Positions 1 to 64,000 of a DNA stretch of 64,000 nt are shown here, one piece after another. Under the pieces are notes generated by a model. That model did no database searches. It was not told the DNA's origin and worked only from the letters and a program-made list of their open reading frames with translations. Numbering within the stretch: the stretch's first letter is position 1; every line of letters starts with the position of its first letter. The translations under genes were made by a program, and so were the position numbers. Origin of the DNA: a virus (Duplodnaviria > Caudoviricetes); the IMG/VR virus record IMGVR_UViG_3300042896_000052, positions 62 through 64,061 of that record; one strand, 5' to 3'.

Positions 1-273
1 AGCAGCATCCCGAGTCATGCCAGCAGCTTCATTGACTGCAATAGCGTCCGTAAGCTTGGTTTCGAGCGCCTTAACATTTGCGGTCAGTGCAGTCTCTACA
101 CCTGCAAGCTTGGTGTTTAGTGCCGCTTCCGTAGTTCCAAGCTGGGCCAGCAAGTCAGCCTTAGTGGTTCCCAAGTTCGTAGCAACGTCTGCAATAGCCT
201 TTTGCGTAGCAGCATCCCGAGTCATGCCAGCAGCTTCATTGACTGCAATAGCGTCCGTAAGCTTGGTTTCGAG
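1..273. repeat. 207-bp (69-aa) coding tandem repeat
   Basis: 1-66 is identical to 208-273; 81-205 is identical to 63876-64000. Unit LETKLTDAIAVNEAAGMTRDAATQKAIADVATNLGTTKADLLAQLGTTEAALNTKLAGVETALT. Confidence 0.95.
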
Positions 274-3200
274 GGTAGCTACGTCCGTTTTAACGCCAGC
301 CACGTCCGTCTTAACGCCAGATACATCAGCACCAAGGCTCTTTAGCTGACTATTGAAGTCTGCCTTGACCAAGTTAATAGCATCGAGTGTCGCTTGATTA
401 GCCCCAACGGAGAGGTTATCTAGCTGTTCAAAGATTGAGTTGTATCGCGCTGCCTCCAGCCCTGCAGTGGCCTTACCCGCAAGCTCAGATTCCGAGTACA
501 CCCCAACAAGTTTGGCAATATCCGCCTGAGTAGGTTTTGCTAGGCCGAGGGCCGCGTACGCAGCTTGAACTTCCCCGGCATCAGTTACCCTAGGGTCGGT
601 ATAGGTTGCGGCTTCTGCTTTAACTGCAGCTTCAGTAACGTCTGCACCGCTACGGACGAACTGGGCGACTTCTTCAGCCGTTGGGTTTGTGTACCCCAGA
701 TCAGTAAGGGTTTGGCGGGCCTCCGCCTCAGTAACCTGCCTAGGGTTTACATAGGCCTCCACTGCGGCCTTAGCATCAGCCTCCGAAATCTTACCCGCCA
801 AGCTTAGGGCCTCGGCGTCGGTCATGTTGTTGTACCCAAGATCCCGCATCATCTGCTGAGCTTCTTGGGTCGTGGTAGCTAGCGGATCGTACTTAGTCGC
901 AACCGCACCTAGCGAGGCTGCTTCATTAGTCTTTCCGATGTACGCATTGACTTCCTCTTGCGTTGGGTCTGTGTACCCGAGGTCTGTCAGCATCTGCCGA
1001 ACTTCTGCCTCATCCGTAACCAGCGGGTCTATAAACGAGTCGATAGCTGCAGGGGCGAAGTTGGGCGGGACGCTGCTGGTAAGTTGTTCTTTTACACCTA
1101 GGGCAGCATCGCTAATCGTTATGTCCCCGAGCTTTAACGGTGTCTCCTTATCGCTAGCAGTCCCAACAACCATATTGGGGTTCAGGGTACTCATGTCCGC
1201 GACTTGCGACCCACTACGTAACCCCCCAAGCGTCAGGTCTTCCCCTGTTGTAGTCCTACCGATAACCGTACTTGGAGCCATGATAGCGCCAGTAGTCCCC
1301 GCGCCGATCATTGCAGAGAACGTAGCCTGTACGTTTGCGGTTCCAATATCTAGTTCGGCGGATGGATCAATGAATTTCTGCTGGATAAGCGTTTGGGTAA
1401 ACGTCTCAATGTACTCGCCAGCCGCACTAGTAGCCACTGCTTTTGTACCCTGAAGTGCAACGTTTGCAGCAGCACCTACCCCCCGTAAGTATGGAACCAG
1501 TATCGCAGCGTTGGCTAGAGCGTTTGCCGGCGCAGTAGTTGCGGCAGATAGCATCCCCCCGGTTACAGCGGCAGCACGAGCATCGGACTCTGAAGCCCCA
1601 GCTTTTATTTTGCCGTCGTAAATCGCTTTACCAGAAGAGCCGAAGACCTCTATACCATCAATAGCAGTTGCAACAACCGTGGCCAATGCAACTCCTGCGG
1701 CTACGGGGGCTCCAAGGACAGTTGCAAGCGCCCCTGCAACTAAAGCCCCCCCGATAGGCAACAATTCCTGCGACCCCTCGCGCCCAAGGTATGCAAAGTA
1801 TGCTGCGGGGTTCTCTTTAACAAGCTGAGCCGTTGCTTTGGCCTGATCGAACATACTACCGGTCTTAGCGATCTCCTTCATTCGCTTCGCTGTTGCATCC
1901 ATCTGCGCGATTACGCTAGCGGGGGTATTAGCGTTACCCCAATCCTGCATAGTCTTGCCGAGGTTTGCGGCAGTATTATTCATGTCCGTGCCGAAGGCAA
2001 GGGAGTACGCGTTCGCCCATGTTTCTACCTGCTGCCCAACACCGGAGGCTAGCGCAGCGGCAATAGGCTTGAGAATATTTGCATTCTCTGGGTCTGCCAT
2101 CGTGGCTACCGCAAATATTTCCGCACGGGATGGCTCAGTAGCGCGAACAGTAATCTCAGTTGCGTCGTACGCGTTTGTATCCGGGTTCCAAATCTTCGGG
2201 GCGGTTGCAGCGTCGGACATGACCCACACCGGGTTACCTTTGTCAGTCAACACCAACTCTGCAGTACCGGCATTAAATTCGTCATTTGTTGCGAGGCGTC
2301 TACCTTCAGGCGTAGTGTATTCAGCCGCAGGGGGTTTATGCCAATCGCCATAAGCGGAACCAACTACTTCAACGCTCCAAGGAGCGCTGCCCGTTGCGAT
2401 TGTGGCGAGGGTTGTTGTGTTGCCGTTGACGATATCCTGTATCGACGCACCCTGCAGTACTTTTAGATTGTTCCCGTATTGGCGATCTACGTAGTCAATT
2501 ATTTTAGATACTTCCTCTGGGGGTGCCGTGGCTATGTCGAGTCCCTTGCTCTCTAGGGCTGCAATTACAAGGCGGGACCGCTCTGCACCAATGGTAGCTT
2601 CTGCGGCTTTAAGGTTCGTAGGGGCCTTTGCGTCCTTACCAGTATTCATCCAATGCGTGTACGGATCTGTCCCCGTAGGGAGGCCATTAATCTCTGCGTA
2701 TTCCTTCGCGTTGAAGTTTGGATCTAGAACCGGAACAAGTTCCCGATTAGCTGTAGCCTCTGCGGCGTCAATCGCGGTTTGAATCGGAGCGGCTGTTTTG
2801 CCTAACCTATCTACCGCATCTGTGTACGTCTGCGCAATGGCGGGCTGTTGCCCCTGCAGGGTACTAACCGTAGCTTGCGCAGCATCGAGGGCCGGTTTGT
2901 ATGTGTTGGTGTAGTCGGTATTAAGCGCCGTTCCGTAAGCATTTGCTGCGGCTGCGGTTGAATTAATAACGGCTACCTGTGCATTTTGTGTTGCGATCGA
3001 CGCCCCGGTAGCTTGCAGTCTAGTTAACTCTGCCCTAGCGGCGGTATCAAGCCCGATAAGCCGGGTCTGCTCCGTTGCGCGAATATCAATTTGCGCCCTT
3101 ATGTTGTTGTAGTCTGCAACAGCGGCTTCCTGCGCAAGCTGGTTATCCTGCAGCTTCGTCCCGGCGGCTTTAGCGGCGGTGTTCGTATCGGAGACACTGC

Positions 3201-4080
3201 CCACTGCAGACTTGAACTCGCTAGTCAGCATATTGCTCAGGGCTTTAGTCCCCGAGGCGGTGAGTGATTTCTCTAGCGCGGCGCTAACGTTCTTCCCCTG
3301 CAACGCTGCGGACGTGGTTGCCATTAACGCATTACCCGCTACCGCTGCCTGCTCTGCGGTTAGCTTAACCCCTGTCGTCTTCTCAAACTCTGCTAACGAT
3401 TTTCCGACAATCTCGCTGGACTGGATGAGCGAGTTAATCAACGATGCGTTTACGTCGCCGTTAGCCAGCTTGGTAGCAACGAGGTTTTGAATGGTGTTGG
3501 CAACCTTCGGATATTCTTTCTGCAGGGTAGCAAACCCATCCACTTTACCTAGTACGACAGGTAACGCAGCGCCGACACCCCCGGTTATAAATGCTTGTAG
3601 CGGGTCACCCCCAGTAACTACCGCACCGGCAGCGGCACCTGCGCCGGCCCCAATGATTTGCCCGGCGGTTTTACCGAATGCTTCGCCAGCAGCTTGACCC
3701 GCAACTTCACCTACCGCAACAGAAACTACTTGCGCTGCGGACGAGATAGCCATCGTCTTTACGACTTCCCCGATATCCTTACCCTTTGCAGCGGCGGCGG
3801 CACCATCAATCAACGGAATAGCCCACGCGTTACCCGTGGCAATCGCGGCTACTTTGGCAATAGCCTTTACCGGATCGTCGGCAATTGCGGCGAGTGTGTC
3901 TTTTACGACCCCACCAACTTGCTCGGCAGCAACGCCTATTGCGTCGTAGACTTGGCTTGTGGCTTCCCGGACGGGAGTAGCGATTGAGCTAGCTACCCCA
4001 CCAACTTGCTCGGCAGCAACGCCTACGGCGTCGTAAATCTGGCTTGCGGCTTCCCGAAAAGGTGTAACAATTGCGCTCAT
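1..4080 (-). CDS. Giant Ala/Gly/Thr-rich internal virion (ejection-type) protein, 5' part; runs off the window edge and probably continues at 64000-63142
   Basis: Not in the ORF track because it has no stop in the window. ATG at 4080 overlaps the upstream TGA (ATGA). Translated by eye: MSAIVTPFREAASQIYDAVGVAAEQVGG..., apparently open for 1360 codons. Has Gly-zipper and hydrophobic segments and internal repeats. Position downstream of the tail nozzle is typical of ejection proteins. Confidence 0.85.
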   Translation of the reverse strand, partial: MSAIVTPFREAASQIYDAVGVAAEQVGGVASSIATPVREATSQVYDAIGVAAEQVGGVVKDTLAAIADDPVKAIAKVAAIATGNAWAIPLIDGAAAAAKGKDIGEVVKTMAISSAAQVVSVAVGEVAGQAAGEAFGKTAGQIIGAGAGAAAGAVVTGGDPLQAFITGGVGAALPVVLGKVDGFATLQKEYPKVANTIQNLVATKLANGDVNASLINSLIQSSEIVGKSLAEFEKTTGVKLTAEQAAVAGNALMATTSAALQGKNVSAALEKSLTASGTKALSNMLTSEFKSAVGSVSDTNTAAKAAGTKLQDNQLAQEAAVADYNNIRAQIDIRATEQTRLIGLDTAARAELTRLQATGASIATQNAQVAVINSTAAAANAYGTALNTDYTNTYKPALDAAQATVSTLQGQQPAIAQTYTDAVDRLGKTAAPIQTAIDAAEATANRELVPVLDPNFNAKEYAEINGLPTGTDPYTHWMNTGKDAKAPTNLKAAEATIGAERSRLVIAALESKGLDIATAPPEEVSKIIDYVDRQYGNNLKVLQGASIQDIVNGNTTTLATIATGSAPWSVEVVGSAYGDWHKPPAAEYTTPEGRRLATNDEFNAGTAELVLTDKGNPVWVMSDAATAPKIWNPDTNAYDATEITVRATEPSRAEIFAVATMADPENANILKPIAAALASGVGQQVETWANAYSLAFGTDMNNTAANLGKTMQDWGNANTPASVIAQMDATAKRMKEIAKTGSMFDQAKATAQLVKENPAAYFAYLGREGSQELLPIGGALVAGALATVLGAPVAAGVALATVVATAIDGIEVFGSSGKAIYDGKIKAGASESDARAAAVTGGMLSAATTAPANALANAAILVPYLRGVGAAANVALQGTKAVATSAAGEYIETFTQTLIQQKFIDPSAELDIGTANVQATFSAMIGAGTTGAIMAPSTVIGRTTTGEDLTLGGLRSGSQVADMSTLNPNMVVGTASDKETPLKLGDITISDAALGVKEQLTSSVPPNFAPAAIDSFIDPLVTDEAEVRQMLTDLGYTDPTQEEVNAYIGKTNEAASLGAVATKYDPLATTTQEAQQMMRDLGYNNMTDAEALSLAGKISEADAKAAVEAYVNPRQVTEAEARQTLTDLGYTNPTAEEVAQFVRSGADVTEAAVKAEAATYTDPRVTDAGEVQAAYAALGLAKPTQADIAKLVGVYSESELAGKATAGLEAARYNSIFEQLDNLSVGANQATLDAINLVKADFNSQLKSLGADVSGVKTDVAGVKTDVATLETKLTDAIAVNEAAGMTRDAATQKAIADVATNLGTTKADLLAQLGTTEAALNTKLAGVETALTANVKALETKLTDAIAVNEAAGMTRDAA

Positions 4081-4544
4081 GCTAGCTCACTTCCAAATGT
4101 AATATGAACTTCGTATGAGCCATCCCCCACGGGGTATATCCTAATGGTCTCGCCTTTAGTTATCGCCTTGCGCCTTTGTGCCTTAAATAGATTTAGAAAC
4201 TTTTCGCCCTCAAACATGGTGTACACATCGGTTATCCCAAGGTTAAAAAGCCGTTTAAAATAGTTGGTCCCGTTGTGTAGTAAATTATGTGCAGTATCTG
4301 CATTAAATGCCCGCATCCATATTCCTTTTGTTTTTGGGGACTCGGGTTTCACCGGGAGAACGTGCCCTAAAAACACAGTATTCCCAAACTGGACGATGTA
4401 CGCATCGTCCATAGCCATCTCCCTAGCTAGCACTAGTAGGGTATCCCGTAGCGAATGTTTCTTTAAATCTTCGGGTGAGATAGAGTTTGCAATGACCGTG
4501 GGGCCATCTAGCTTTTGCTTCCGACTATCAACTATCGTAGCCAT
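4077..4544 (-). CDS. Small alpha/beta protein, possible degenerate GNAT-like acyltransferase
   Basis: ORF 4077..4562; likely start ATG 4544 after GAGGA RBS. Occupies the slot of T7 gp13/P22 gp14-like genes between the nozzle and ejection proteins. Function is inferred from context only. Confidence 0.5.
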   Translation of the reverse strand: MATIVDSRKQKLDGPTVIANSISPEDLKKHSLRDTLLVLAREMAMDDAYIVQFGNTVFLGHVLPVKPESPKTKGIWMRAFNADTAHNLLHNGTNYFKRLFNLGITDVYTMFEGEKFLNLFKAQRRKAITKGETIRIYPVGDGSYEVHITFGSELA

Positions 4545-4545
4545 A

Positions 4546-5652
4546 CTATATCCTCGGGTCAAAAAGTGCTGCAGCGTATACGTTACCCATACCCGCAGCT
4601 AAACTTAAAAAAATCCCGGAAGTAGCAGGGACGTCGTGAGACAGGAACACGTTGTCAATGTCGGTTCGATTCGCTATACCGGGTATGATGCCACGATTCA
4701 AGTCATCTAGCAATAGTCCGGTCTCAAGGAGTCCGCTAGCTGCTAAGGTATGCCCGATTCGTTGTTTATACGAGGTTGCAACAAACTCCGGTAAGACCGA
4801 CAGGATACCCGCTTTCTCAGCATTATTGTTAGTGGCCGTACCAGTTCCGTGTGTCTTTACGATGTTCACTTCGCTAGGCGCTAGCTTGGCCACCATAAGC
4901 GCTCCCTCGATAGCTTTGCGGTATCCTTGCCCGTCAGCGCGTTGTCCCAGCGGGTTTGCAAAATCTTCTGCAGCGACGTATGCCCCAAGAAATTTAGCTC
5001 GCGGAGTATCAACTGGGTTTCTCTCAAAAATAGCGAGGGCCGCACCTTGCCCAATATTAAACCCAGCGTTTATGGGATCAAAGGCGGAAGGTTTTACGTT
5101 GCTCTCGTCCTTAACCAGCAGGCTAGCTTTTGCTTGCCCAAAGAACTCAAGGGTAGAGTTATTCACTGAGTCTTCCATACCGAGCACGATAAACCGATCA
5201 AACCCAAAATTGTCCATCAGGTTCTTCATCTCCATAAGCACTTTTAGGCTCGATGCGCAGGCGCTAGCGTCTGTGGATACGTAGTCAGACACCCCGAACA
5301 TACTGGCAACGCGCCCCGCATAGATGTTGGTTAGGCATACAAGCGGCAGCTTAAAGCGATAGTGCAGGGTTGAGTCCTCAGCATACTCTTTCTTTCCTCG
5401 AACACCCGCCCATCCTTGGGAGCCCCCCGCAAGGATAAAGCCGGTCTTACCCGCCACGGGGTTGTCGCTAACGTATGCAAGAAGTTCTGGCGTGATGACT
5501 TTATTCGCAAGGACGTGCGCCGGATATACCATCCCCGTCTTGGCTCGCTCATAGGTCTCTGGGAACCAATGTACCCGTTGCGGATACGGATGATCTAAGA
5601 TTACGTCAGTGTGTGCGGTAGACGCGGTAGCATAGCGGGACAGGTAAATCAT
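4546..5652 (-). CDS. Beta-ketoacyl-ACP synthase (FabB/FabF-like ketosynthase)
   Basis: Catalytic motifs DASACASS (Cys codon 5257-5259), KTHGTGT (His 4849-4851) and YKQRIGHTLAASG (His 4750-4752); also GFNIGQGA and C-terminal AGMGN (FGFGG equivalent). Confidence 0.93.
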   Translation of the reverse strand: MIYLSRYATASTAHTDVILDHPYPQRVHWFPETYERAKTGMVYPAHVLANKVITPELLAYVSDNPVAGKTGFILAGGSQGWAGVRGKKEYAEDSTLHYRFKLPLVCLTNIYAGRVASMFGVSDYVSTDASACASSLKVLMEMKNLMDNFGFDRFIVLGMEDSVNNSTLEFFGQAKASLLVKDESNVKPSAFDPINAGFNIGQGAALAIFERNPVDTPRAKFLGAYVAAEDFANPLGQRADGQGYRKAIEGALMVAKLAPSEVNIVKTHGTGTATNNNAEKAGILSVLPEFVATSYKQRIGHTLAASGLLETGLLLDDLNRGIIPGIANRTDIDNVFLSHDVPATSGIFLSLAAGMGNVYAAALFDPRI

Positions 5653-5930
5653 TGGATCATCCCCAATGCTTCTTCCGTTGTTACCGGGGACTGTGTTTTA
5701 TGCGCCTGCAAAAGATCATGCAATTCCCGCACAGTTGTGTATTTAAGATCCTGCATAACTGACTCTTCGATGCCGTACACATCCCCAAAGTACATGCTGA
5801 GCATGATGTAGTCTAAGCTATCCAGCCCTAAATTTACAAATTCATCATCTAAGGTATGCGCGAAGCTATCCTCTGCGCTGACAGGTTTAACGAGGGTGAT
5901 AACCCCGTTGAAAAGTTTAATAAAGTCCAT
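5649..5930 (-). CDS. Acyl carrier protein
   Basis: Acidic ~93-aa protein with LGLDSLD phosphopantetheine motif (Ser codon 5817-5819) and TTVRELHD helix IV. Likely start ATG 5930 after GAGGT. ATGA overlap with the ketosynthase. Confidence 0.9.
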   Translation of the reverse strand: MDFIKLFNGVITLVKPVSAEDSFAHTLDDEFVNLGLDSLDYIMLSMYFGDVYGIEESVMQDLKYTTVRELHDLLQAHKTQSPVTTEEALGMIQ

Positions 5931-5991
5931 AAGCACCTCGTATTGAAGGGACTTCATTATGGCGTAAAAGCGAAACTGAATGCCTCGGCAG

Positions 5992-6246
5992 TTAGACTTT
6001 TACTTTGAGCACGTTACCTGCAGTGGTATCGCGGTACACATCCCCCACACGGAGCGTAGCTAGTGAAGCTTCAGTTGGCAGGGTTTTGAGGTCTAAGTTT
6101 AACCCAGCTACGCTCAGTAACTGCACCGCATTTAAATCCACAAAATACAACCGCAAGACGTTAAGTAGTTTGCTCATGTGCCCAGCATCGTACTCCGCAG
6201 GGGCCACCGGTAAGTTGGGTGGGTTGCGGGTGTTGAACATCCCCAT
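5992..6246 (-). CDS. Small virion protein downstream of tail nozzle
   Basis: Likely start MGMFNTRNPPNLPVAPAEYD...LRLYF at 6246; structural operon context. Confidence 0.6.
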   Translation of the reverse strand: MGMFNTRNPPNLPVAPAEYDAGHMSKLLNVLRLYFVDLNAVQLLSVAGLNLDLKTLPTEASLATLRVGDVYRDTTAGNVLKVKV

Positions 6247-6247
6247 A

Positions 6248-8395
6248 TCAACCCCTCCGTCCGTCAGGGCGTATGTCAATCCGGGGTGAACCTAGCTGCC
6301 ACTGAACACCAAGCGCCGTAGAGTTAACCTTAATGGACATTTGCCGGCCGCGCACGCGAACAAATACTTGCCCGGTGAACTGCTCTACGGGAACTGTTGC
6401 CGACCTAACCACCGGAGCCGTGTTCGTACCGCCCACCGAAGTAGGATCGTTGTAGCCCGAGCCAGAGTTTTTAAGTGGTAGCAAGGTCATGGAGATCGCG
6501 GGGTTCTCGGCTGTAGACCCTCTGAATGTGACATCCGGCAGTATGCGGTTGATGAAAGCAAACTGGTGCCCATCCCCGATATCAAACTCTGAAGACGTAA
6601 TCGTGGCTTCGATTGGTAGCAACGCATTGATCCCATAGATACCATCATCCACACCATTCTCATGCTGTACGATATTGTTTGCATATGTTGCAGCTATCGG
6701 GTACTCCGTAATACCGCTGTCCAACCATGCGGTGCGCCCCATAGTCCCGTAGTACCACACATCCTCCACGTAGTTATAGATGACGTATTTGTCAACTACC
6801 GTAGAGTTCGCAGCGCAGTAAAACCACCAAATCTCGTTAAACCCCTCATTGGTTCCCGCAGTTACTTGGTACCGTTGCGTGAAGTTAAGGTCTCCGAACA
6901 CGTACTGGCGCAGGTCACATCGTAGTGTGGAGACCGTACCGTCGTACTTATAGAACTTGTCGATGCCCATCCAATAGGCTACCCCCGAGGCGACAATCGC
7001 ACTATTTGGCCCCATGCTAGACACGTTATCCGCCAAAAGGGTTGAGCCCCATACGACAGGAGCCCCAAGGAACTGCAGGGAGTACATCGCTTGGTCAGTC
7101 CAAACCAGAATCTCCTGCCGCACTTGGATTGCAGTGGATATCTCAGACCCATGCGATAGGCGCAAGTCCCCGGCTTGGTTCAATGCCGTTGGTGTCCAGT
7201 CGGTAATATTCTCTTGATCGCACCAGCGGATTAGCATCGGGTCAAGTACCGCGCTACCGATTGGATTGGCTCCAAATGCAAGGACGAAACGCGATACGTC
7301 CGACACAAGGATGTCCTGCACCGTAGTGGGCACCCCCGTTGCGCCGGGTAGTGACGTGACATTCACGGCCCGAACGGAAGGGCCTGTAGAAGAATACCAG
7401 TAGTACAAGCCACCATAGCGCGGCACAAACACCAAGTCTTCTCCGAAATTCATCTGCGACCACAGACGGAGTTCTGCGTTGCTGACCGTACCCACACCCC
7501 AAGAGCCATAGCCCCAAGGGCCGGCACCCCACCCGCGAGACGGAATTTGATACTCCGGACCCGTATTGATCTGGTAGGCTGCTAGAACAGCAGTGCCGCC
7601 GCCCGTAGCAGTGGATGTAGCTGCGGTAGCCGCAACAAACTCATAGCTGTCCGCATCCACAACCCGCGTTATCTGCTGCTCTTTGTTTATGTCCCCCGCA
7701 GGGACGCCCCCGGTAGCCGTAGCCCCGCTAAAGGTAACGAAGTCGTTGGCAATTGCGCCATGAGCGGTGTGCGTTACCGTGATGGTGTTGGAGGTATTTA
7801 CCGTTGCGAACGGATTAGCACCCAGTGTCTGCGCTTGAATAATGTATGCAGCAGCAACAGCACCACCGCCAGTAGCTACGGATGTAGCGGCAGTTGCGAC
7901 CAAGATATGGTACGTGTTGGCAGCTATCGGGCCAATAATCGTGTGCTGCTGACTCAAGTCAGCGGCTGGAACACCACCTACTACGCCGGAACCCGTGAAA
8001 GTAACTAAGTCCCCTATCTGCGCCCCGTGAGCAGCATCAGTTACCAGAATGTCGGTAGGTGCCCCTAGGTTGGTAGTAAACGGGTTGGTGAGTGCTGCGC
8101 TGTAGTCATACGTGCGGATTGGAGTGATGTCGAAATAGGAGCCACCACGGGCTACATAGAACTTCAAATCCGTACCTAGCCCAAGGTATTTAATGCTGCT
8201 AAGGGTTACCCACTGCCATAAGGAACGGCATACGCCGAGGAACGTGTTAGCGGAGACACGCATCCAACCGCCAATTTTCTCAGGTGTACCTTGGCGAAAG
8301 CGTATTTTGTCGGATTCGTACCACCCACCCTCTGTTGTGTAGCGGGTATTTTCACGGTTTAGGCCACTCTTAAGTGTAATCTTCTGTAATGGCAC
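6248..8395 (-). CDS. Tail nozzle / stabilization protein (P22 gp10 / T7 gp12-like) with two inserted beta domains
   Basis: 715 aa beta-propeller-like pattern (IRWCDQEN, EILVWTD, EIWWFY, RGRQMSIK); duplicated NPF-T...VT-AHGA--GD-VTF insert. Confidence 0.75.
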   Translation of the reverse strand: MPLQKITLKSGLNRENTRYTTEGGWYESDKIRFRQGTPEKIGGWMRVSANTFLGVCRSLWQWVTLSSIKYLGLGTDLKFYVARGGSYFDITPIRTYDYSAALTNPFTTNLGAPTDILVTDAAHGAQIGDLVTFTGSGVVGGVPAADLSQQHTIIGPIAANTYHILVATAATSVATGGGAVAAAYIIQAQTLGANPFATVNTSNTITVTHTAHGAIANDFVTFSGATATGGVPAGDINKEQQITRVVDADSYEFVAATAATSTATGGGTAVLAAYQINTGPEYQIPSRGWGAGPWGYGSWGVGTVSNAELRLWSQMNFGEDLVFVPRYGGLYYWYSSTGPSVRAVNVTSLPGATGVPTTVQDILVSDVSRFVLAFGANPIGSAVLDPMLIRWCDQENITDWTPTALNQAGDLRLSHGSEISTAIQVRQEILVWTDQAMYSLQFLGAPVVWGSTLLADNVSSMGPNSAIVASGVAYWMGIDKFYKYDGTVSTLRCDLRQYVFGDLNFTQRYQVTAGTNEGFNEIWWFYCAANSTVVDKYVIYNYVEDVWYYGTMGRTAWLDSGITEYPIAATYANNIVQHENGVDDGIYGINALLPIEATITSSEFDIGDGHQFAFINRILPDVTFRGSTAENPAISMTLLPLKNSGSGYNDPTSVGGTNTAPVVRSATVPVEQFTGQVFVRVRGRQMSIKVNSTALGVQWQLGSPRIDIRPDGRRG

Positions 8396-8403
8396 GGTTC
8401 ACC

Positions 8404-8916
8404 TCATGCGGTCATGGCAAGGGCTTCATTGTTGACAGCTTCAACGCGTGTCTCCCAGCCTTTGCCAAATGTTGTAAATGTAGGTAGCTCCTTGAGGAAC
8501 GCCAACCTTGCGTCATTGTAGTCCTCAATGAGTTTTTTAAGGTCTTTTCCCGCCAGTATGAGAATGGTCTTGGGCCCGATGAACCCATCCGGCAACGTGC
8601 CCACTAGCTTCTGCAGCACCTTAGCAGCCCGTCCGGGGCCGGAGTTCACCGCGAAATCAAACACGGCATGGTCTAAACCTGCTGGCAGCAGATCACCGGA
8701 CACCTTGTCCCAGTACTTGCGGCGGTACATGGGGTGGATGTTCATCGGCTTCAGGGCACGCATATCCTTCTCAGTCACGGGGTGGCCGACCCACTCTTCC
8801 CATACTGCTTTGGTAACGCCCATGTTTGTCATACCTCCGGGATCGAGCGGATGGTGAACGTACCCCCCTTCATGCGAGAGTAGTGCCGTCATTGCCGTAG
8901 CGAACGTTTCTTTCAT
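8404..8916 (-). CDS. Endolysin, glycoside hydrolase family 108 with peptidoglycan-binding domain
   Basis: HEGGYVHHPLDPGGMTNMGVT, FDFAVNSG, DGFIGPKT, FGKGWETR motifs. Confidence 0.93.
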   Translation of the reverse strand: MKETFATAMTALLSHEGGYVHHPLDPGGMTNMGVTKAVWEEWVGHPVTEKDMRALKPMNIHPMYRRKYWDKVSGDLLPAGLDHAVFDFAVNSGPGRAAKVLQKLVGTLPDGFIGPKTILILAGKDLKKLIEDYNDARLAFLKELPTFTTFGKGWETRVEAVNNEALAMTA

Positions 8917-9371
8917 TTACCGAGTCCATTAAGTAAGTCTGTTTTTTTCTGCGATGACTGGCTGGTGCCGTAGTAGTACCCGAGCACGAACGTGATGAAC
9001 GATACCGCCGCCATACGAACGTCCTGCGCCTGCGACCACCCGAGTAAGATACCGGAGCCAACGACTATAAGCGTAGCCAGCAAGTTCACGAAGTTCTTGG
9101 CGAACCAATCTGACTGCCCCAGCGCGATCTTCTGCATCCCACGAGCATCTGCCACATCAGCTTGGTTCAGCTTGGCATACTCGAAATCAAGTTCCCGGAG
9201 TCGCCTGCCTGCTTCCGGGTCGGCGGTCAGGGCTTGGGTAACCGCCGCAACTGTGTCTTCAACGCCGAACTTCTGAGCGATCATGGAGATAACTGCACCA
9301 CCTGCAGGGCCCACAGCAGCAGTAGCCAGCGCAGGAGCGAAGCCCTTGAGGAGATTGAGTAGTGTTTCCAT
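8913..9371 (-). CDS. Putative holin
   Basis: APALATA..GPAGG N-terminus, two C-terminal TM segments, GYYYGTS motif; coupled to the endolysin. Confidence 0.7.
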   Translation of the reverse strand: METLLNLLKGFAPALATAAVGPAGGAVISMIAQKFGVEDTVAAVTQALTADPEAGRRLRELDFEYAKLNQADVADARGMQKIALGQSDWFAKNFVNLLATLIVVGSGILLGWSQAQDVRMAAVSFITFVLGYYYGTSQSSQKKTDLLNGLGK

Positions 9372-9372
9372 A

Positions 9373-11445
9373 CTAGCTAAACAGTAAGAAGAACGCGGCG
9401 GTCGCTATAGCAACCGCCGTAAATAACCAGCCTGCGTTACCAGATACGTTAGTAGAGTCCACCCCTGCATACCAAGTTGCGCCCCCGGTGGCAATAGAGT
9501 TTGTCAAAGACAGATAACTCGCGCTAACTATGCCGGATGCTTTAGACAAAGTATGCGTAGCTGCCGTAACCGAACGAATGGTTAGTAATTTACCAGCGGT
9601 ACCACTTGCATTCCAGTTTGCAAAGGTGGATGTTGTCCCTGCCGTAAACAAAATAGACGTAGCACTTACAGCCCCGTAAGCGTTTGTGATATCGTTGAAC
9701 GTGTTTGATCCTGTAATAGTCAGCGCACCCGCGCCGCCTTGGTTTAAAGTTGGGTAGTTAGCAAACCCACCACCAGCAAAAGTTTTAGCACTTGCGCTGG
9801 TTAAACTGATAACCCCTGTACCAGTAATTGTCAAGTTTGTTGATGTTGTGGCAGTCCATGCCGCACTTGCACCAGTTAGTATAATACTTCCAGTCCCAAA
9901 CGCAATCTGTCGTATGTTTACGTTATTCGTATTAAGCAGTGCGCAGGTAAGTGTGTAATTACCAGCACCGCCGTTAGTCAAATCTAATGTGCCATACGCA
10001 TGACTCACCGCCCCCACAATTAAAGCCCCATTAATTGCGACAGTTCCCCCAATTGCAAAAATCTGGAGCGTTCCCGGGGTAGTAACTCCGGCGCTAGTAA
10101 TAGTTTGTGTAGTATTCCTTCCAAAAAATTTCCACGCGGTTGCTGCACCCGTTATTGTTAATCCAGCCCCAGATAACCAATTACCCGAAATTAAAAGATC
10201 AGCCGCAAGTGTTAAGGTCATTGCACCAGTTCGCGCAGACGCATTAAACGTACCAATATTCCACGCAAGGTCAACGCGTATTGCACCTGTTACAGACCCC
10301 GCGTTGTTAAATACAGCAATGTCCTGCGCTAGTGGGAAATTACTTATTGACGGAGTGCCTCCTGAAGATGCGGCCCATCCTGTTGCAGACCAGTTTTGGT
10401 TACCTGCAAGATTCCAATACACCGTTTTAGGAGCAGTAAACGTAATGCCTGAATTGCCACCAGCGTCCCCTAAACTAATCTCTGATAAAGGGGCCGCACC
10501 CCCTGAAACTGTAACGTCTTGATAGTCTGCGTAGGGAGAAGATAGTGATGCACAAGTTAATGTACGAGTTATTCCAATTGTATTCGATAAGAAAAATAGC
10601 CTTTGATTATAAGTACCGCCATTTGCGGTAAAAGTACCCGTCACGGTTTGAGAAGCCGTTAACAGAACCCTCATAATAGATATAAACACCGGCCTAATAA
10701 TGCTTAAATTATTAAAAGTATTTTCGCCATTCATTACTACTTGATTAGTCGCACTAAAGCTAACATTGTTATATATTAAGCCCCCACCATCAAACTGAAC
10801 ATTACTAATTCCACCCCAACTAATCGTAGATGTACCCGCATTAAATGTTAACCCTATAACGTCGGTAAAACCCCACGAGTTTGCTGTTGTTATATTAACT
10901 GTTGAACTGCCCAATATAACTGACCTAGTTAATGTTCCAAAAGATTTTAAACCTCCGGTTATATTAAAATTACCGGTATTAAAAGTACCAGTACTTATAG
11001 ACGCATAATTGCTATTGCTAAGAGTAAGTGCACTACCGAGTGTCCACTCACCGCCCACGCCGTTAAGATGAAACCCACCGGGTATAGAAACGCCATTTGT
11101 TGTAATGATGTTCCCGGTGCTTATTGAAGCAAACGTAATATTGCCAGTGTAGGTCCATGTAACACCAGTAGCCGCGAGTGTAAAACTACCGTATACCGAC
11201 CAAGATCCCAAGTCGGATATTGTTACGTTGCCCGCTGCCGGGCCCGCCACTGTTACTGAGCTACAAACTGCGCCATTGACCATTGTCACCGTGTAACCCG
11301 TTGCATTTGATAATGTATTAAATGTTACGGTATCAGCAGAAGTTGGTACTGACGCCCCGCCAGAACCGCCAGATATTGCAGACCAATTTGTTGTTGTGGT
11401 TGTGTTCCAAGTACCCGTACCTCCGACCCAATAACGATCTGCCAT
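9373..11445 (-). CDS. Tail spike / receptor-binding protein (beta-helix-like)
   Basis: 690 aa, Thr/Gly/Asn-rich; two copies of a YW-G--W-----W-SSGG---P---D---FN module; visibly AT-richer codons. Confidence 0.7.
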   Translation of the reverse strand: MADRYWVGGTGTWNTTTTTNWSAISGGSGGASVPTSADTVTFNTLSNATGYTVTMVNGAVCSSVTVAGPAAGNVTISDLGSWSVYGSFTLAATGVTWTYTGNITFASISTGNIITTNGVSIPGGFHLNGVGGEWTLGSALTLSNSNYASISTGTFNTGNFNITGGLKSFGTLTRSVILGSSTVNITTANSWGFTDVIGLTFNAGTSTISWGGISNVQFDGGGLIYNNVSFSATNQVVMNGENTFNNLSIIRPVFISIMRVLLTASQTVTGTFTANGGTYNQRLFFLSNTIGITRTLTCASLSSPYADYQDVTVSGGAAPLSEISLGDAGGNSGITFTAPKTVYWNLAGNQNWSATGWAASSGGTPSISNFPLAQDIAVFNNAGSVTGAIRVDLAWNIGTFNASARTGAMTLTLAADLLISGNWLSGAGLTITGAATAWKFFGRNTTQTITSAGVTTPGTLQIFAIGGTVAINGALIVGAVSHAYGTLDLTNGGAGNYTLTCALLNTNNVNIRQIAFGTGSIILTGASAAWTATTSTNLTITGTGVISLTSASAKTFAGGGFANYPTLNQGGAGALTITGSNTFNDITNAYGAVSATSILFTAGTTSTFANWNASGTAGKLLTIRSVTAATHTLSKASGIVSASYLSLTNSIATGGATWYAGVDSTNVSGNAGWLFTAVAIATAAFFLLFS

Positions 11446-53542: not shown

Positions 53543-53756
53543 CTCGGTACGCTTTATAACCCTGTACGGCATCCCGTACTTCATCCCGTGGGAGGACTTC
53601 CTCCCCGGGTATTCCGTCTTCCTCAAGACAAGCACCTGCGCCAGTGAGGTTCAATTAGCGTGCCGGGAGGCCGAGAAGTACCTCCAGATCACACTCCGCG
53701 CCAGACCCCGGTTGGAGTTTGGATATTACGGAGTGCGTATCTGGCGGCTATCTTAG
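53517..53756 (+). CDS. Small putative DNA-binding protein
   Basis: IPWEDFLPGYSVF...GVRIWR; likely ATG at 53517. Confidence 0.55.
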   Translation: MTLPPLLPDSVRFITLYGIPYFIPWEDFLPGYSVFLKTSTCASEVQLACREAEKYLQITLRARPRLEFGYYGVRIWRLS

Positions 53757-56700
53757 ATTTGCCCGGTCAGCTTTGGCTTCCCGCACCCACCCGACGAGTT
53801 CGATTTCCAACTGCTTGATCTCTTTCAGTTCGGCCTCCCGTTCGTCGGCACTCATCTCTTTGGCCCCCTCGACGCTGTTTAAGTACGTACGGTAGGCACG
53901 CGTGCGTTGCAGTTGCTCTAGCGTAGAGTTGATTGCCGACTCCAGCATCAGTTCGTCGGCATGTTCTTCGGCATAGACAACGGCGCGGTCCATGTCGGTC
54001 TGCATGAGGGAGTTGAGCGTTGCGTTTGCCTTGCCCATAGTCTCCCGCTCTTCGTAGAACTCAGTCATGCGGCGCGTGCCCACAGGGTCGTACATGTAGT
54101 TGCTGAGCAACGCCCACTTATGCAGGGGACGATCGACCCGGGTAGGGTTCATCAAGCTATCGGTTACGGATGTAAGGATGGCTGCAGTTGACCCAAAGTA
54201 CCCAAGCAGGGCGTTGTCAACCATGATGGGGGAGACTTCTACGCCCACAACATCTCGGCTAAAAGTAACTATCGCCTTGGCAAGCTCCGAAGTTGTTGCA
54301 GTGACCCGTTCGCTCTTGTCCATCTGCTGCTGGTGGAATCCCTCCAACGCCCGGCCCGTTAAGAACGACTTGTTGGCCCATGCCTCTATCAACGGTTTTG
54401 CAGCCTGTGGAATAGGGGTAACGCGTCCAACGTATTGCTCCATGATGTAGCTTGCGGCCGTACGGACGGCTTCAAAGGCTTCTTGCTCCTCCGGAGTTCC
54501 TTGCCTACGCATGTACTCAACAACGCGCTCGGGAATAACTTTGAATATCGCTCCGAGTTCCCCGGGGACTGCAAGCTTCATGCCGCCGACAATCCAGTTA
54601 CCGTCGCGGGTACGCAAGTCCATGTTCTTGTATTCTTCGTCGTCATCATCCTTGCTCAGTGCATAGAGGGAAGACAGTGCAGTTGCAATGGCTGCACGAC
54701 CCCAGAACATGCGGCGTGCTTGTGCGCGGCCTACGGAGGAGCTAGAGTCCTTGCCCGAGGCTGCACGGTACAGCACATCCATACCCTGTATGTATGCGTT
54801 AAAGAACGGAATGGTGGTAACCATAGCGCCAACAACTTCGTTGTTACCCCGGCGGCGGAAGTTAATAAACTCTCTGGCCCGAGTCTGGGATAGCAGTTGG
54901 TCCCCGGACTCCTTCATGGTCTGGTCGTATATTGCTTTACGCACCGCTAAGTCCGAGGCCCGAGTAATACCGTCAAGTCTATGCAGTAGGGTTCCAACTT
55001 TACCCCGTGGTACGTACCCTAAATCTTTCAGTAGTGACGATGCGGGCTTACCTGCTTGGAAGTCATACTCGCCCGTGAGGCCCATAGCGCCGAACTCCCG
55101 TACGCTGGGGTGCTGTATCCCACGGAGTTCTGCCAATGCTAGTTTCGGGAAGTTAGTCAGCGTCATGCGTAACAATGCGCCGGGGTTCTTCACACCAGAA
55201 GTCATGATGGCACGCTGCACGTCGTCGGTTACCTGCTTCAAAGCAAAGGGAGGTAGTGCGGTGATTGACTTGCGCAGCACATTGGAGAACGCACCCAACT
55301 GCAGCAGCCAGCCGGCCTTCGGTACGTTGAGATCTTTGAACGCCATCACATCGTACTTACTCGGCATTTCCCAGTAGTTCATTACGCCGTTGACATACGC
55401 GCCCACTACGTTGGGTTTGCCTTGATCGCTAAGTCCCAAGGCTTTAGCAGAGGTAACCTTCTCCAAGCTGCGCAGCGTATTTATGGTGGCATCGGTCTTA
55501 ACTACTTGGCCAAGCATCCAGCCCAACGTGTCCATGTAGTTGTTAAAGACGTTACCTACAGGGAGTTCGATTGCACCTTTAAGCTCTGGGAGCTTGCCAA
55601 CTTGCGCCAACCCTTTGCCGCTAACCCGCTTAACCTTGCTGAATGCAGCCAACCCCTCGGGGGATATCCTATCGAACGGCACGTACCCAGCAACTTCACG
55701 CCAGTCTTTACCCTGCTCAGGCGAGAGCCGACCCACGGCCACCATGTGGTCAACCAAGGCGATACGGGCGCTATCCATCAGGTCTGCGATAGCCTGTAGT
55801 TCTGGGTTTGCTTTGAGTTCCGCCAACATATTGTCTATCTGCTGGTCAATAGATAGGTTGGAAGTCTTGTCAATCTTGTGCAGAACAAACCCAGCGCCGG
55901 TTTTGTTGGCGGTACGCATACCGTCTAGACGCACGCCCTCAAGGATTCGGCTACCGACCTCGTTAGCTTCCTCAAAGGACAGTCCGTTTGCTTCGCCCCA
56001 TGTCTTAAGCTTAGCGTACACGTCGGCCGGGGCACCTACACCCGCAACCTTTTTAACTTGCCACAGACCCGTTGTTGGCTCCTTTGCAATGCCGCCCACC
56101 TGCAAAAACTCCAGCAGCATTTTGGTGTAGTCCTGTGCTTGACGGTACAGGCCCATAGGGTTCAGTTCCCCTAAACTATCGCGTACTGCGCCATCAAATT
56201 TAGCAGTCAACCGAGACTCAATCGTTGCAGCAATATCGGCTACCTGTGTGCGGAACTTGGTTACGTAATCCAAGGTAGGGTCAGACTTGACCGCATCTAC
56301 TAGCCGGGTCAACAGCGACTTCTCAAGGGGGGATACCGGACCCGCCCCTGCGACAAGCGCTTTGGTAGTAGTGGAGATCGCAAACTGTTTACCCGTTGCA
56401 GTACTTGCCTCGGATAGAGCGCCCCGCTTTACGCTAGTGAGTTCGCCGCCGACGCGAAGGAGTTCACTCAGTGCGGTATCTGCTTTGGGTTTAAGTCCCA
56501 GCATGTCGCGTACGAGGGTTACAAACTTGCCCCAAGCAGTAGTGCCTTTGTACGGGATGCCCTCCAAGTATGCCTGCATCTCCCTATTGGAGAGTGCCCA
56601 TGTGAGCATTTCGTCGGCATCGGCCAGAGCGTTGTGGCGCTTATCAAAAGCCCGTCGCTCAAAGTCTGTCAGCTTCTCGCCGGATGCTACGCGGGTGTTG

Positions 56701-63141: not shown

Positions 63142-64000
63142 TTAGCGTATAGCATCTAACAGGTCGTCGAGGTACCCGCCTGATGCGATTTTAACTGTCC
63201 CTTGCGGGGTCTGTGTAGTATTTGTAGCTTTCTGCTTGGCATAGCCCCCGAAGAAGCCCACGTCTAGCGGCTGTGAGAAGTCAAACTGCGGTCCGGCTTG
63301 CACAACTTCCACCGGCTGGTTAAGCGTTGCGGCTTGCGCCTGTGCCTGCTGCTGTAGTCCACCCATAAGTCCTTGAATCCCCGTCATCATCTGCCCGCGA
63401 AGCTGTCCAGTTTGCGTAGCCTTGAGGTTTGCTGCAGCTTGTGCACGCTGGGCTTCCGCAGTGGCGGCGGCTTGGGCACGCTGGGCCTCCGCAGTGGCGG
63501 CGGCTTGGGCTTGAGCTTTTGCAACGTCGGCTTGTCTAGCGGCTTCAGAAGCATCTAGTTGCCCGTAAAGACCAGTGGACTCCCACTTGAACGGCTGGGT
63601 ATTGACCCCGCTAACGACGTTTGCTAAGAAGTCGTAGTCCGTCTGGTTAACTACACCGTCTTTGTTAGCGTCAAACTTGGGGTCTATCTGCTGGGTACCC
63701 TGCAACTGATTCTGCAGGACGTTGAGATCCGCTTGTGTTACTGGGGAAGCCTTAGTTCCAATAAGCTTGTTTACTTCATTGAACGCTTGTTGAGTTGCTT
63801 CGGCTTGAGTTTTACCTTGGGCAACGAGCTCATCGACCCGGGCGTTCATGGTAGCCGTGGCCCCAGTAATCTGTCCGGTCAGTGCAGTCTCTACACCTGC
63901 AAGCTTGGTGTTTAGTGCCGCTTCCGTAGTTCCAAGCTGGGCCAGCAAGTCAGCCTTAGTGGTTCCCAAGTTCGTAGCAACGTCTGCAATAGCCTTTTGC
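63142..64000 (-). CDS. 3' part of the giant internal virion protein that starts at 4080
   Basis: Frame is open to the window edge and shares the 207-bp repeat; DANKDGVVNQTD Ca-binding-like loop; IASGG near the end. Confidence 0.8.
   Translation of the reverse strand, partial: QKAIADVATNLGTTKADLLAQLGTTEAALNTKLAGVETALTGQITGATATMNARVDELVAQGKTQAEATQQAFNEVNKLIGTKASPVTQADLNVLQNQLQGTQQIDPKFDANKDGVVNQTDYDFLANVVSGVNTQPFKWESTGLYGQLDASEAARQADVAKAQAQAAATAEAQRAQAAATAEAQRAQAAANLKATQTGQLRGQMMTGIQGLMGGLQQQAQAQAATLNQPVEVVQAGPQFDFSQPLDVGFFGGYAKQKATNTTQTPQGTVKIASGGYLDDLLDAIR

Follow-up and report, generated by a model that had tools for sequence, protein, structure and literature searches.

Why should a short-tailed phage keep an acyl carrier protein (ACP) and a beta-ketoacyl synthase (KS) in the midst of the genes that build its particle? 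The question is raised by a stretch of 64,000 nucleotides (the window), which is the IMG/VR record IMGVR_UViG_3300042896_000052 minus 61 bases; the record is complete, with 64,061 bp and a 59-bp direct terminal repeat, and its source is an uncultured freshwater short-tailed phage. On the minus strand of the window, three genes follow directly one upon another and encode an ACP of 93 residues (5649..5930), a divergent KS of the elongating type with 368 residues (4546..5652) and a protein of the GNAT fold with 155 residues (4077..4544). An earlier reading made from the letters of the DNA, called the sequence-only reading here, had taken the first two for a dedicated late acyl-chain pathway that serves particle assembly, most simply by lipidating a virion protein. 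Our analysis shows that the ACP-KS-GNAT cassette is real, conserved and virus-specific. Its parts are of known kinds and their arrangement is new, the new element being an ACP-KS pair wired to a GNAT in the slot of internal virion protein A (IVP-A).

The arrangement has a bearing on IVP-A itself. In T7 the operon of internal virion proteins (IVPs) opens with IVP-A right after tubular tail B, and IVP-A (gp13) is a non-structural assembly protein that is required for morphogenesis and is not in the virion (PMC4819975). It is needed for infectious particles yet no part of them, and the printed accounts, in the portions available to us, describe it only as acetyltransferase-like. Finding a private carrier and a condensing enzyme in front of the same slot suggests a concrete chemistry, namely acyl transfer from a carrier protein. 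With an ejection protein as acceptor, it would be the first case of a tailed phage encoding a pathway to lipidate its own particle; with a lipid or a small molecule as product, the cassette would count as a viral metabolic module of a new type. The family turns up often, with the KS encoded in 187 IMG/VR stretches and the GNAT in 401, against one of 50,697 GenBank phage records for the KS (MW202545, uncultured). What is more, the proteins of the cassette are small and soluble-looking.

The acyl carrier protein and the ketosynthase

The ACP belongs to the Pfam family PP-binding, which it matches with 26 bits over a cut-off of 20.8. The LGLDSLD motif pointed out in the sequence-only reading is present, and its residues Asp37-Ser38-Leu39-Asp40 are invariant in all 32 aligned relatives; the serine motif is kept in at least 90% of 59 distinct sequences, and Ser38 is the predicted phosphopantetheine site. 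The open reading frame (ORF) covers 5649..5957, so that an in-frame ATG at 5957 would give 102 residues and the ATG at 5930 gives 93, which is the usual ACP length among the relatives. The isoelectric point is 4.2. By the AcpP equivalog models the protein is no AcpP, with 16.3 bits vs 70.45 for TIGR00517 and 16.8 vs 106 for NF002149.

The KS matches both halves of the Pfam ketosynthase, Ketoacyl-synt_C with 59.1 bits and ketoacyl-synt with 38.1 bits, where the cut-off is 20.8 for both. The Cys-His-His triad that had been read from the sequence stands: Cys132, His268 and the accompanying Lys296 are invariant in 38 of 38 family members, and His301 is kept in 37 of them, down to an identity of 28%. 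These catalytic residues align with the active-site stretches of Streptococcus pneumoniae FabF (1ox0). A decarboxylase-only enzyme of the chain-length-factor type was considered and dropped because Cys132 is kept. The AGMGN motif noticed earlier is found at the C-terminus as AAGMGNVY. As for the description of the KS as short with a divergent N-terminus, the Pfam N-domain is indeed matched at profile positions 115-248 of 252 only, but the AlphaFold model (predicted local distance difference test, pLDDT, 94.9) is complete, and Foldseek aligns it from end to end with FabF, KasA and the actinorhodin KS (412-435 columns, template modelling score, TM, 0.77-0.81). The model is that of a complete thiolase fold, in which the N-terminal half appears trimmed.

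The tight coupling of the genes can be read directly from the sequence and is as had been claimed. ACP stop and KS start share an ATGA at 5649-5652; the KS stop TAG at 4546-4548 is followed by one base and then by the ATG of the GNAT gene at 4544; and the TGA of the GNAT gene overlaps the ATG (4080) of a giant gene of 1646 codons.

Origin of the ketosynthase

The KS falls below all named NCBIfam cut-offs, its best score being 97 bits vs 407 (PRK09185), and the FabF model TIGR03150 gives 91.2 vs 493.75. Among PHROG families it matches phrog_35856 ('unknown function', 2.8e-31). A search through all of 1.84 billion representatives returned 54 proteins with E no higher than 1e-30, of which about 45 are relatives of 345-390 residues; beyond the relatives, it led to multi-domain polyketide synthases and to cellular-type KS of 380-430 residues at 27-32% identity. 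In a quick maximum-likelihood tree with long branches (LG+G4, 106 rows, nine outgroups, no bootstrap), the phage KS group together as one clade with SH-aLRT 100, and a long branch separates it from the nearest cellular-type KS. The sequence-only reading had named nesting within host FabF as an outcome that would speak against it, and the KS lies outside cellular FabF.

Among 185,579 species genomes, relatives of the KS occur at 4 loci, all on metagenome-bin contigs. In a set of 5.8 billion sequences, 1445 KS clusters were found at E 0.001, the weakest of which may be cellular, and a locus search with the distant representative P0143 recovered one already known contig only. In these comparisons the KS family is virus-only, one clade far from cellular FabF; ACP and KS are a virus-specific pair kept by selection, and the KS has its catalytic residues intact.

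The remainder of a fatty-acid pathway is missing from the genome. Six-frame family searches of the complete genome found no ACPS (a phosphopantetheinyl transferase, PPTase), FabD, FabA/Z or short-chain dehydrogenase/reductase (FabG/I). Run on 14 control genomes, the same searches gave matches over the cut-off in 9 to 13 of them. Pfam scans, which covered 43 ORFs, likewise showed no PPTase, FabD, FabG, FabZ or FabI. With ACPS, FabD, FabA/Z and the reductases missing, the ACP and KS cannot form a self-sufficient lipid pathway, and host enzymes must supply the remaining steps. Both the absence of these genes and the borrowing of host enzymes had been anticipated from the sequence.

The GNAT-fold protein and the IVP-A position

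The AlphaFold model of the third protein, computed with a 32-row alignment, reaches pLDDT 92.9 and a predicted TM score of 0.86. Its best 50 Foldseek matches in the PDB are all GNAT-type acyl- or acetyltransferases, with E from 2.1e-4, and the best solved structures among them act on small amines, namely diaminobutyrate, aminoglycosides, spermidine, phosphinothricin and a siderophore hydroxylamine. The matches in BFVD, a set of predicted viral structures, are headed by uncharacterised phage proteins (TM up to 0.80) and include an 'Internal virion protein A' at rank 12. The protein has no match in PHROG or NCBIfam. An atlas look-up gave no named cluster at 0.9, and the GNAT and malonyl-CoA decarboxylase clusters at 0.83-0.85 can be taken as leads only. 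A tblastn search of GenBank phages with this protein returned zero matches, though MW202545 holds a 27%-identical copy. The third gene had also been considered as a PPTase, which was dropped since the fold is that of a GNAT.

Proteins of the GNAT superfamily carry a glycine-rich pyrophosphate-binding loop after strand 4. In the window protein the loop, as identified by eye, reads F-N-A-D-T-A-x-N instead, with D83 and N87 invariant, and this altered loop could fit a donor other than acyl-CoA. A complex prediction of GNAT and ACP scored 0.01 against a mark of 0.32 and bears on neither side.

In its place in the genome the protein corresponds to podoviral IVP-A. According to Hardies and co-workers, acetyltransferases are matched both by T7 IVP-A and by the small gene in the syntenic position of phiRIO-1-like phages, and IVP-A homologues lie at the same place in P22 and epsilon15 (PMC4819975); in the cobavirus paper the SIO1 counterpart is called a GNAT and equated with T7 gp13 (PMC6775973). 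We checked the gene order of T7 and likewise that of SIO1 in their records. The window shows the same succession of a tail-tube-B-type gene, the GNAT and internal virion genes, with the flanking genes named from position and size. The likeness to T7 gp13, P22 gp14 and SIO1 gp26.2/pc40 consists in the same slot, the size class (138-155 residues) and the fold class, the last being known for the window protein by predicted structure and for IVP-A by HHpred or InterPro in print (PMC4819975, PMC6775973). The differences are that no sequence relation to the window GNAT is detectable and that no IVP-A described so far is preceded by ACP and KS. In place, size and fold class the third gene is like IVP-A, and it would work in a like manner, but we do not file it as a member of the IVP-A family.

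The sequence-only reading had known of no characterised system of this kind. A full-text search of the literature found no paper on an ACP-KS pair in a phage structural operon, but the GNAT-like gene in the slot is already in print as acetyltransferase-like in the two papers just cited.

Distribution of the cassette

Two surveys of gene order were made. The KS-based survey holds 81 loci, which are 80 of the 187 IMG/VR stretches and MW202545, and the GNAT-based survey holds the best 80 of the 401 IMG/VR stretches, with 79 loci that have enough upstream sequence. The order common to most of the 81 KS loci is an upstream structural protein, ACP, KS, GNAT and a giant protein. An ACP-like ORF of about 93-110 residues with a DS motif stands directly upstream of the KS in 74 of the 79 loci with sequence there, and the other five have ACP matches by tblastn. 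Behind the KS, 64 of 75 complete downstream ORFs belong to the GNAT family. Seen from the GNAT, the ACP-KS pair lies directly before it in 48 of 79 loci, and in 25 of these the KS overlaps it by a few bases. In this lineage the pair, whenever it is present, is found exactly before the GNAT and behind variable tail-associated ORFs. We read ACP-KS as a mobile pair that would make something on a private carrier.

Some single loci depart from the common order. At L158 (3578-3889) an ACP lies directly before the GNAT and the KS is absent (ACP profile 6.8e-27); this locus is counted with those that lack the pair. L002, the closest IMG/VR relative with 74% KS identity, has an extra ORF of 218 residues between KS and GNAT (9100-9756), for which no Pfam match and no PDB sequence match was found and in which a His-x-Asp ... 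His pattern can be seen by eye. Ferritin-like di-iron proteins with weak similarity to acyl-ACP desaturase and AurF adjoin ACP-KS in other phage lineages, at L169 (5561-6367), L171 (6077-6886), L172 (6077-6886) and L173 (3898-4722), and L173 combines the di-iron protein, ACP and KS with ORFs of 149 and 122 residues. By their gene content these neighbourhoods are putative small viral biosynthetic clusters. Comparison of the GNAT profile with the 149-residue ORF behind the L173 KS by hhalign gave a probability below 1%, which is a weak test with a single-sequence template.

Proposed mechanism and alternative explanations

What would such a cassette do? Our preferred reading, which we hold tentatively as a good possibility rather than as a probable one, is that ACP, KS and GNAT form one late unit that makes an acyl group and hands it on, tied to the operon of ejection proteins (IVPs). 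We infer its chemical steps, donor and acceptor as follows. A host PPTase would turn the phage ACP into the holo form, and host FabD would load malonate onto it. Cys132 of the KS would take an acyl chain from the host pool and condense it with malonyl-phage-ACP, and the product would be a 3-oxoacyl chain, two carbons longer, on the phage ACP, with no reduction steps. Being so diverged, the phage ACP would probably be kept apart from the host fatty-acid enzymes. The GNAT-fold protein, in the place of IVP-A, would then pass the chain on to an amine in a target that the internal virion proteins require for assembly or membrane insertion, the simplest acceptor being the giant protein whose start codon overlaps the GNAT stop. 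We favour this reading because the stops and starts of the three genes overlap or abut and the last overlap runs into the giant gene, because the catalytic residues and the ACP serine motif are conserved, the thiolase fold is confident and the third protein has a GNAT fold, and because the pair repeatedly sits exactly in front of the GNAT. The lack of the other pathway genes, the divergence of ACP and KS from their housekeeping counterparts and the published role of IVP-A in morphogenesis count in its favour too. The di-iron protein with weak acyl-ACP-desaturase similarity that lies beside ACP-KS in other phages also fits real acyl-ACP chemistry.

A bolder form of the idea, which we think rather unlikely, would extend it to IVP-A in general. 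GNATs of the T7 gp13 type would then be acyl-ACP-dependent acyltransferases that lipidate an ejection protein for storage in the head and later entry into the host envelope; most phages would use host acyl-ACP, and this widespread freshwater and marine lineage would have its own carrier and KS for a special, probably 3-oxo, donor. A lipidated ejection protein would then be to bacterial viruses what myristoylated entry proteins are to animal viruses.

Several results weigh against the acyl-handing unit. With regard to the GNAT, the best 50 PDB matches give TM of only 0.33-0.53 to solved GNATs; at E 0.01 the protein matches none of the Pfam families of acetyltransferases or of enzymes that use acyl-ACP; its 32-row profile has zero matches to PDB sequences at E 1; hhalign of the profile with T7 gp13 and SIO1 gp26.2 yields probabilities below 1%, a weak test with single-sequence templates; and PF11090 and PF11039 are absent from the genome at E 1, where PF11090 had no positive control over the cut-off, the controls being cellular. 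The giant protein proposed as acceptor has no lysine in its first 59 residues. With regard to the association of the genes, ACP-KS is missing from 31 of the 79 loci where the same GNAT family occupies this slot, and small beta-rich ORFs stand there, with an N-terminal motif in common with a 95-residue ORF of the window. When the pair's presence is mapped on a tree of 76 distinct GNATs, 6 changes are required, and well-supported branches force at least two of them. At 10 complete loci and one partial locus among the 81, the genes before ACP-KS are those of a primase and an SNF2 helicase, and the place of the GNAT is taken by a small, unrelated ORF that matches nothing in Pfam; these loci form two clades nested among the other KS, and a search for the GNAT in five of the records found zero, in records that are 12-34% complete and whose missing parts may or may not hold one. 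The three loci of a distant KS clade, from T7-like phages, have ACP-KS placed between the genes for tail fibre and terminase, and the next gene encodes a ferritin-like di-iron protein with 24.2 bits to Rubrerythrin, over the cut-off, and 16.6 to the acyl-ACP desaturase family, below it, which speaks against a strict link with the GNAT. The constant position within a group of related phages may reflect common descent, and the slot varies in the way that insertion sites for accessory genes do. Embedding in the morphogenesis operon, as claimed from the sequence, is true of this genome but no fixed property of the pair. The proposed lipidation of a virion protein has gained a plausible acyl-transfer step by the GNAT fold of the next gene.

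The patterns of occurrence are what one would expect from the main rival, which we regard as somewhat unlikely: ACP-KS would be a mobile auxiliary metabolic module of two genes, by which the phage diverts or disturbs the host's synthesis of fatty acids or membrane lipids during infection, and would have landed in a variable slot of the late operon, next to a GNAT that is an ordinary IVP-A-type factor with a host donor. It would account for the pair in the replication module without adjoining GNAT (10-11 of 81 loci), for the 3 loci with a di-iron enzyme, for the GNAT without the pair, for several gains or losses, and for a slot that holds different ORFs in related phages; phage ACPs are, moreover, already described as auxiliary metabolic genes (PMC11705849). 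It is harder to reconcile with an ACP and a KS that are far too diverged for plain supplements of AcpP and FabF, and by themselves a KS and a carrier contribute neither a reduction nor a dehydration. Within the lineage the pair stands always directly before the GNAT with overlapping codons, not anywhere in the slot, and one locus keeps ACP and GNAT only. The reading that the pair is a recently captured host fabF-acpP pair without special role, or a decaying remnant, is hardly credible. Public records do annotate the KS simply as 3-oxoacyl-ACP synthase, but the virus-only clade has a long stem, relatives in the 185,579 species genomes are confined to the 4 loci on metagenome-bin contigs, the catalytic residues are kept down to about 30% identity, and the scores lie far under the FabF and AcpP cut-offs.

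A distinctly improbable alternative accepts the joint action of the trio and differs in the product, which would be a small N-acylated molecule (an N-acyl amine, amino acid, sugar or signal) and no lipidated protein, as with other trios of a dedicated carrier, a synthase and an N-acyltransferase. The small-amine substrates of the closest GNAT structures agree with it, as do the larger ACP-KS clusters of other phages, such as that of L173, and the 218-residue ORF of L002, both of which resemble small-molecule tailoring; fold matches at TM about 0.5 do not fix a substrate, however, the GNAT gene belongs to the IVP operon and its stop codon overlaps the start codon of the giant protein, and the genome scans showed no gene for an acceptor-making enzyme or an exporter. 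It is very improbable that ACP, KS and GNAT are packaged as cargo, ejected with the DNA and active in the first minutes of infection. The genes do lie among giant proteins of the ejected type, one of which, with 1923 residues, has an LPD38 domain and a weak virion RNA polymerase match, but nothing here lends support to packaging, and the IVP-A counterpart is not retained in the T7 virion (PMC4819975).

Comparison with known carrier systems

The pair has the same domains, catalytic residues and fold as the AcpP and FabF/FabB of type II fatty-acid synthesis. It differs in that the KS is shorter by about 45 residues, has a remodelled N-terminal part and carries AGMGN in place of the glycine-rich motif that is usual at the C-terminus, and in that the KS forms a separate clade, and both KS and ACP score far below the family cut-offs. 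With such scores and such a clade, the pair resembles dedicated carrier systems. In rhizobia, NodF, NodE and NodA are a dedicated ACP, a synthase of the beta-ketoacyl-ACP synthase II type and an N-acyltransferase that uses an acyl-carrier donor, and the other steps come from host fatty-acid synthesis. The cassette shares with this system a private carrier, a condensing enzyme and a putative N-acyltransferase, and the lack of its own reductase, dehydratase, malonyl transferase and PPTase; it differs since NodA is not known to be a GNAT and its acceptor is a chito-oligosaccharide, whereas here we deal with a virus and a late operon. Rhizobial lipid A offers a further design of the same sort, where the dedicated carrier AcpXL and the synthases FabF1XL/FabF2XL feed the acyltransferase LpxXL. 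Toxin-activating acyltransferases of the HlyC type take their acyl groups from acyl-ACP and attach them to lysines of the pore-forming protein that the adjoining gene encodes, so that in hlyC-hlyA a small acyltransferase gene lies directly upstream of a large membrane-active substrate. The likeness to these last two systems is one of design only, and the window proteins have no sequence match and no top-50 fold match to their families.

In phages, ACPs have reportedly been described as auxiliary metabolic genes, among them gp30 of Alteromonas phage R22Y and those of Rhodobacteraceae prophages. A phage ACP alone has been discussed as a help for host fatty-acid synthesis, with no KS, GNAT or link to virion genes in the portion of the paper available (PMC11705849), and the available portion of a review of podoviral ejection proteins does not mention acylation (PMC8954989).

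Genomic setting of the cassette

A minus-strand block carries the small and large terminase genes (from 27592 down), portal, capsid and tail genes and the cassette, and then continues across the genome ends, past which it holds four very large genes; the replication genes lie in a plus-strand block at 28138-53542. Scans for promoters and terminators found fewer sites than in shuffles and none that separates the cassette, and metatranscriptome contigs of one dataset cover 6156-6400 only, outside the three cassette genes.

Upstream of the cassette, a gene on the minus strand (6248..8395) encodes a virion structural protein of 715 residues that matches phrog_3287 ('virion structural protein') at 3.7e-64. 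MW202545 has a relative that bears the annotation 'phage stabilization protein', and the match to SIO1 gp27 is marginal and local (E 0.002). From its position and size it is reasonable to take it as tail-tube-B- or nozzle-like. Downstream, and across the genome ends, follows the gene of a giant alanine-rich protein of 1646 residues (minus strand, 1..4080, with the first 1360 residues here, continuing at 63142-63969). It has two 29-residue N-terminal repeats, in which there is zero lysine, and one 40-residue hydrophobic stretch at residues 772-813; no PHROG family and no Pfam family over the cut-off was found for it, and it is reasonable, again from position and size, to regard it as an ejection or internal virion protein. 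Thus the placement of the cassette between nozzle and ejection genes that had been proposed agrees with phrog_3287 upstream and giant proteins downstream, but the words nozzle and ejection come from position and size.

Within the first repeat-bearing part of this gene, contigs X3 and X4 from two other freshwater or lake studies skip exactly 87 bases (window 3908-3994), so that these relatives carry one copy of the 29-residue repeat. The giant genes downstream of the cassette have no family, except the 1923-residue protein (53748-59519, minus strand), which has the LPD38 'large polyvalent protein' domain with 85 bits and a weak match to the virion RNA polymerase family phrog_2206 (1.7e-9), and which is probably an ejected multi-domain protein.

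Between the tail gene and the ACP, a small conserved ORF (5992..6279, minus strand, about 82-95 residues) carries the motif ..NVLRLYF.., which recurs at the N-termini of variable ORFs of 64-378 residues in the same slot of related phages; the window's ORF has no Pfam and no PHROG family. In this slot after the 715-residue tail gene, L091, L128 and L142 have ORFs of 64-378 residues with the shared N-terminal motif and differing beta-rich C-terminal parts, the latter with weak similarity to BclA_C, and these are perhaps exchangeable tail-tip or fibre proteins. A muramidase gene with GH108 and PG_binding_3 domains (8404-8916, minus strand) lies within the tail gene block and not in a lysis cassette. 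On the plus strand, the replication block at 32000-53542 encodes a family A DNA polymerase, an SNF2 helicase, a DUF927 primase, a PhoH-like protein, a MazG-like (PRA-PH) protein, a DUF2201 metallopeptidase/VWA pair and an HNH endonuclease.

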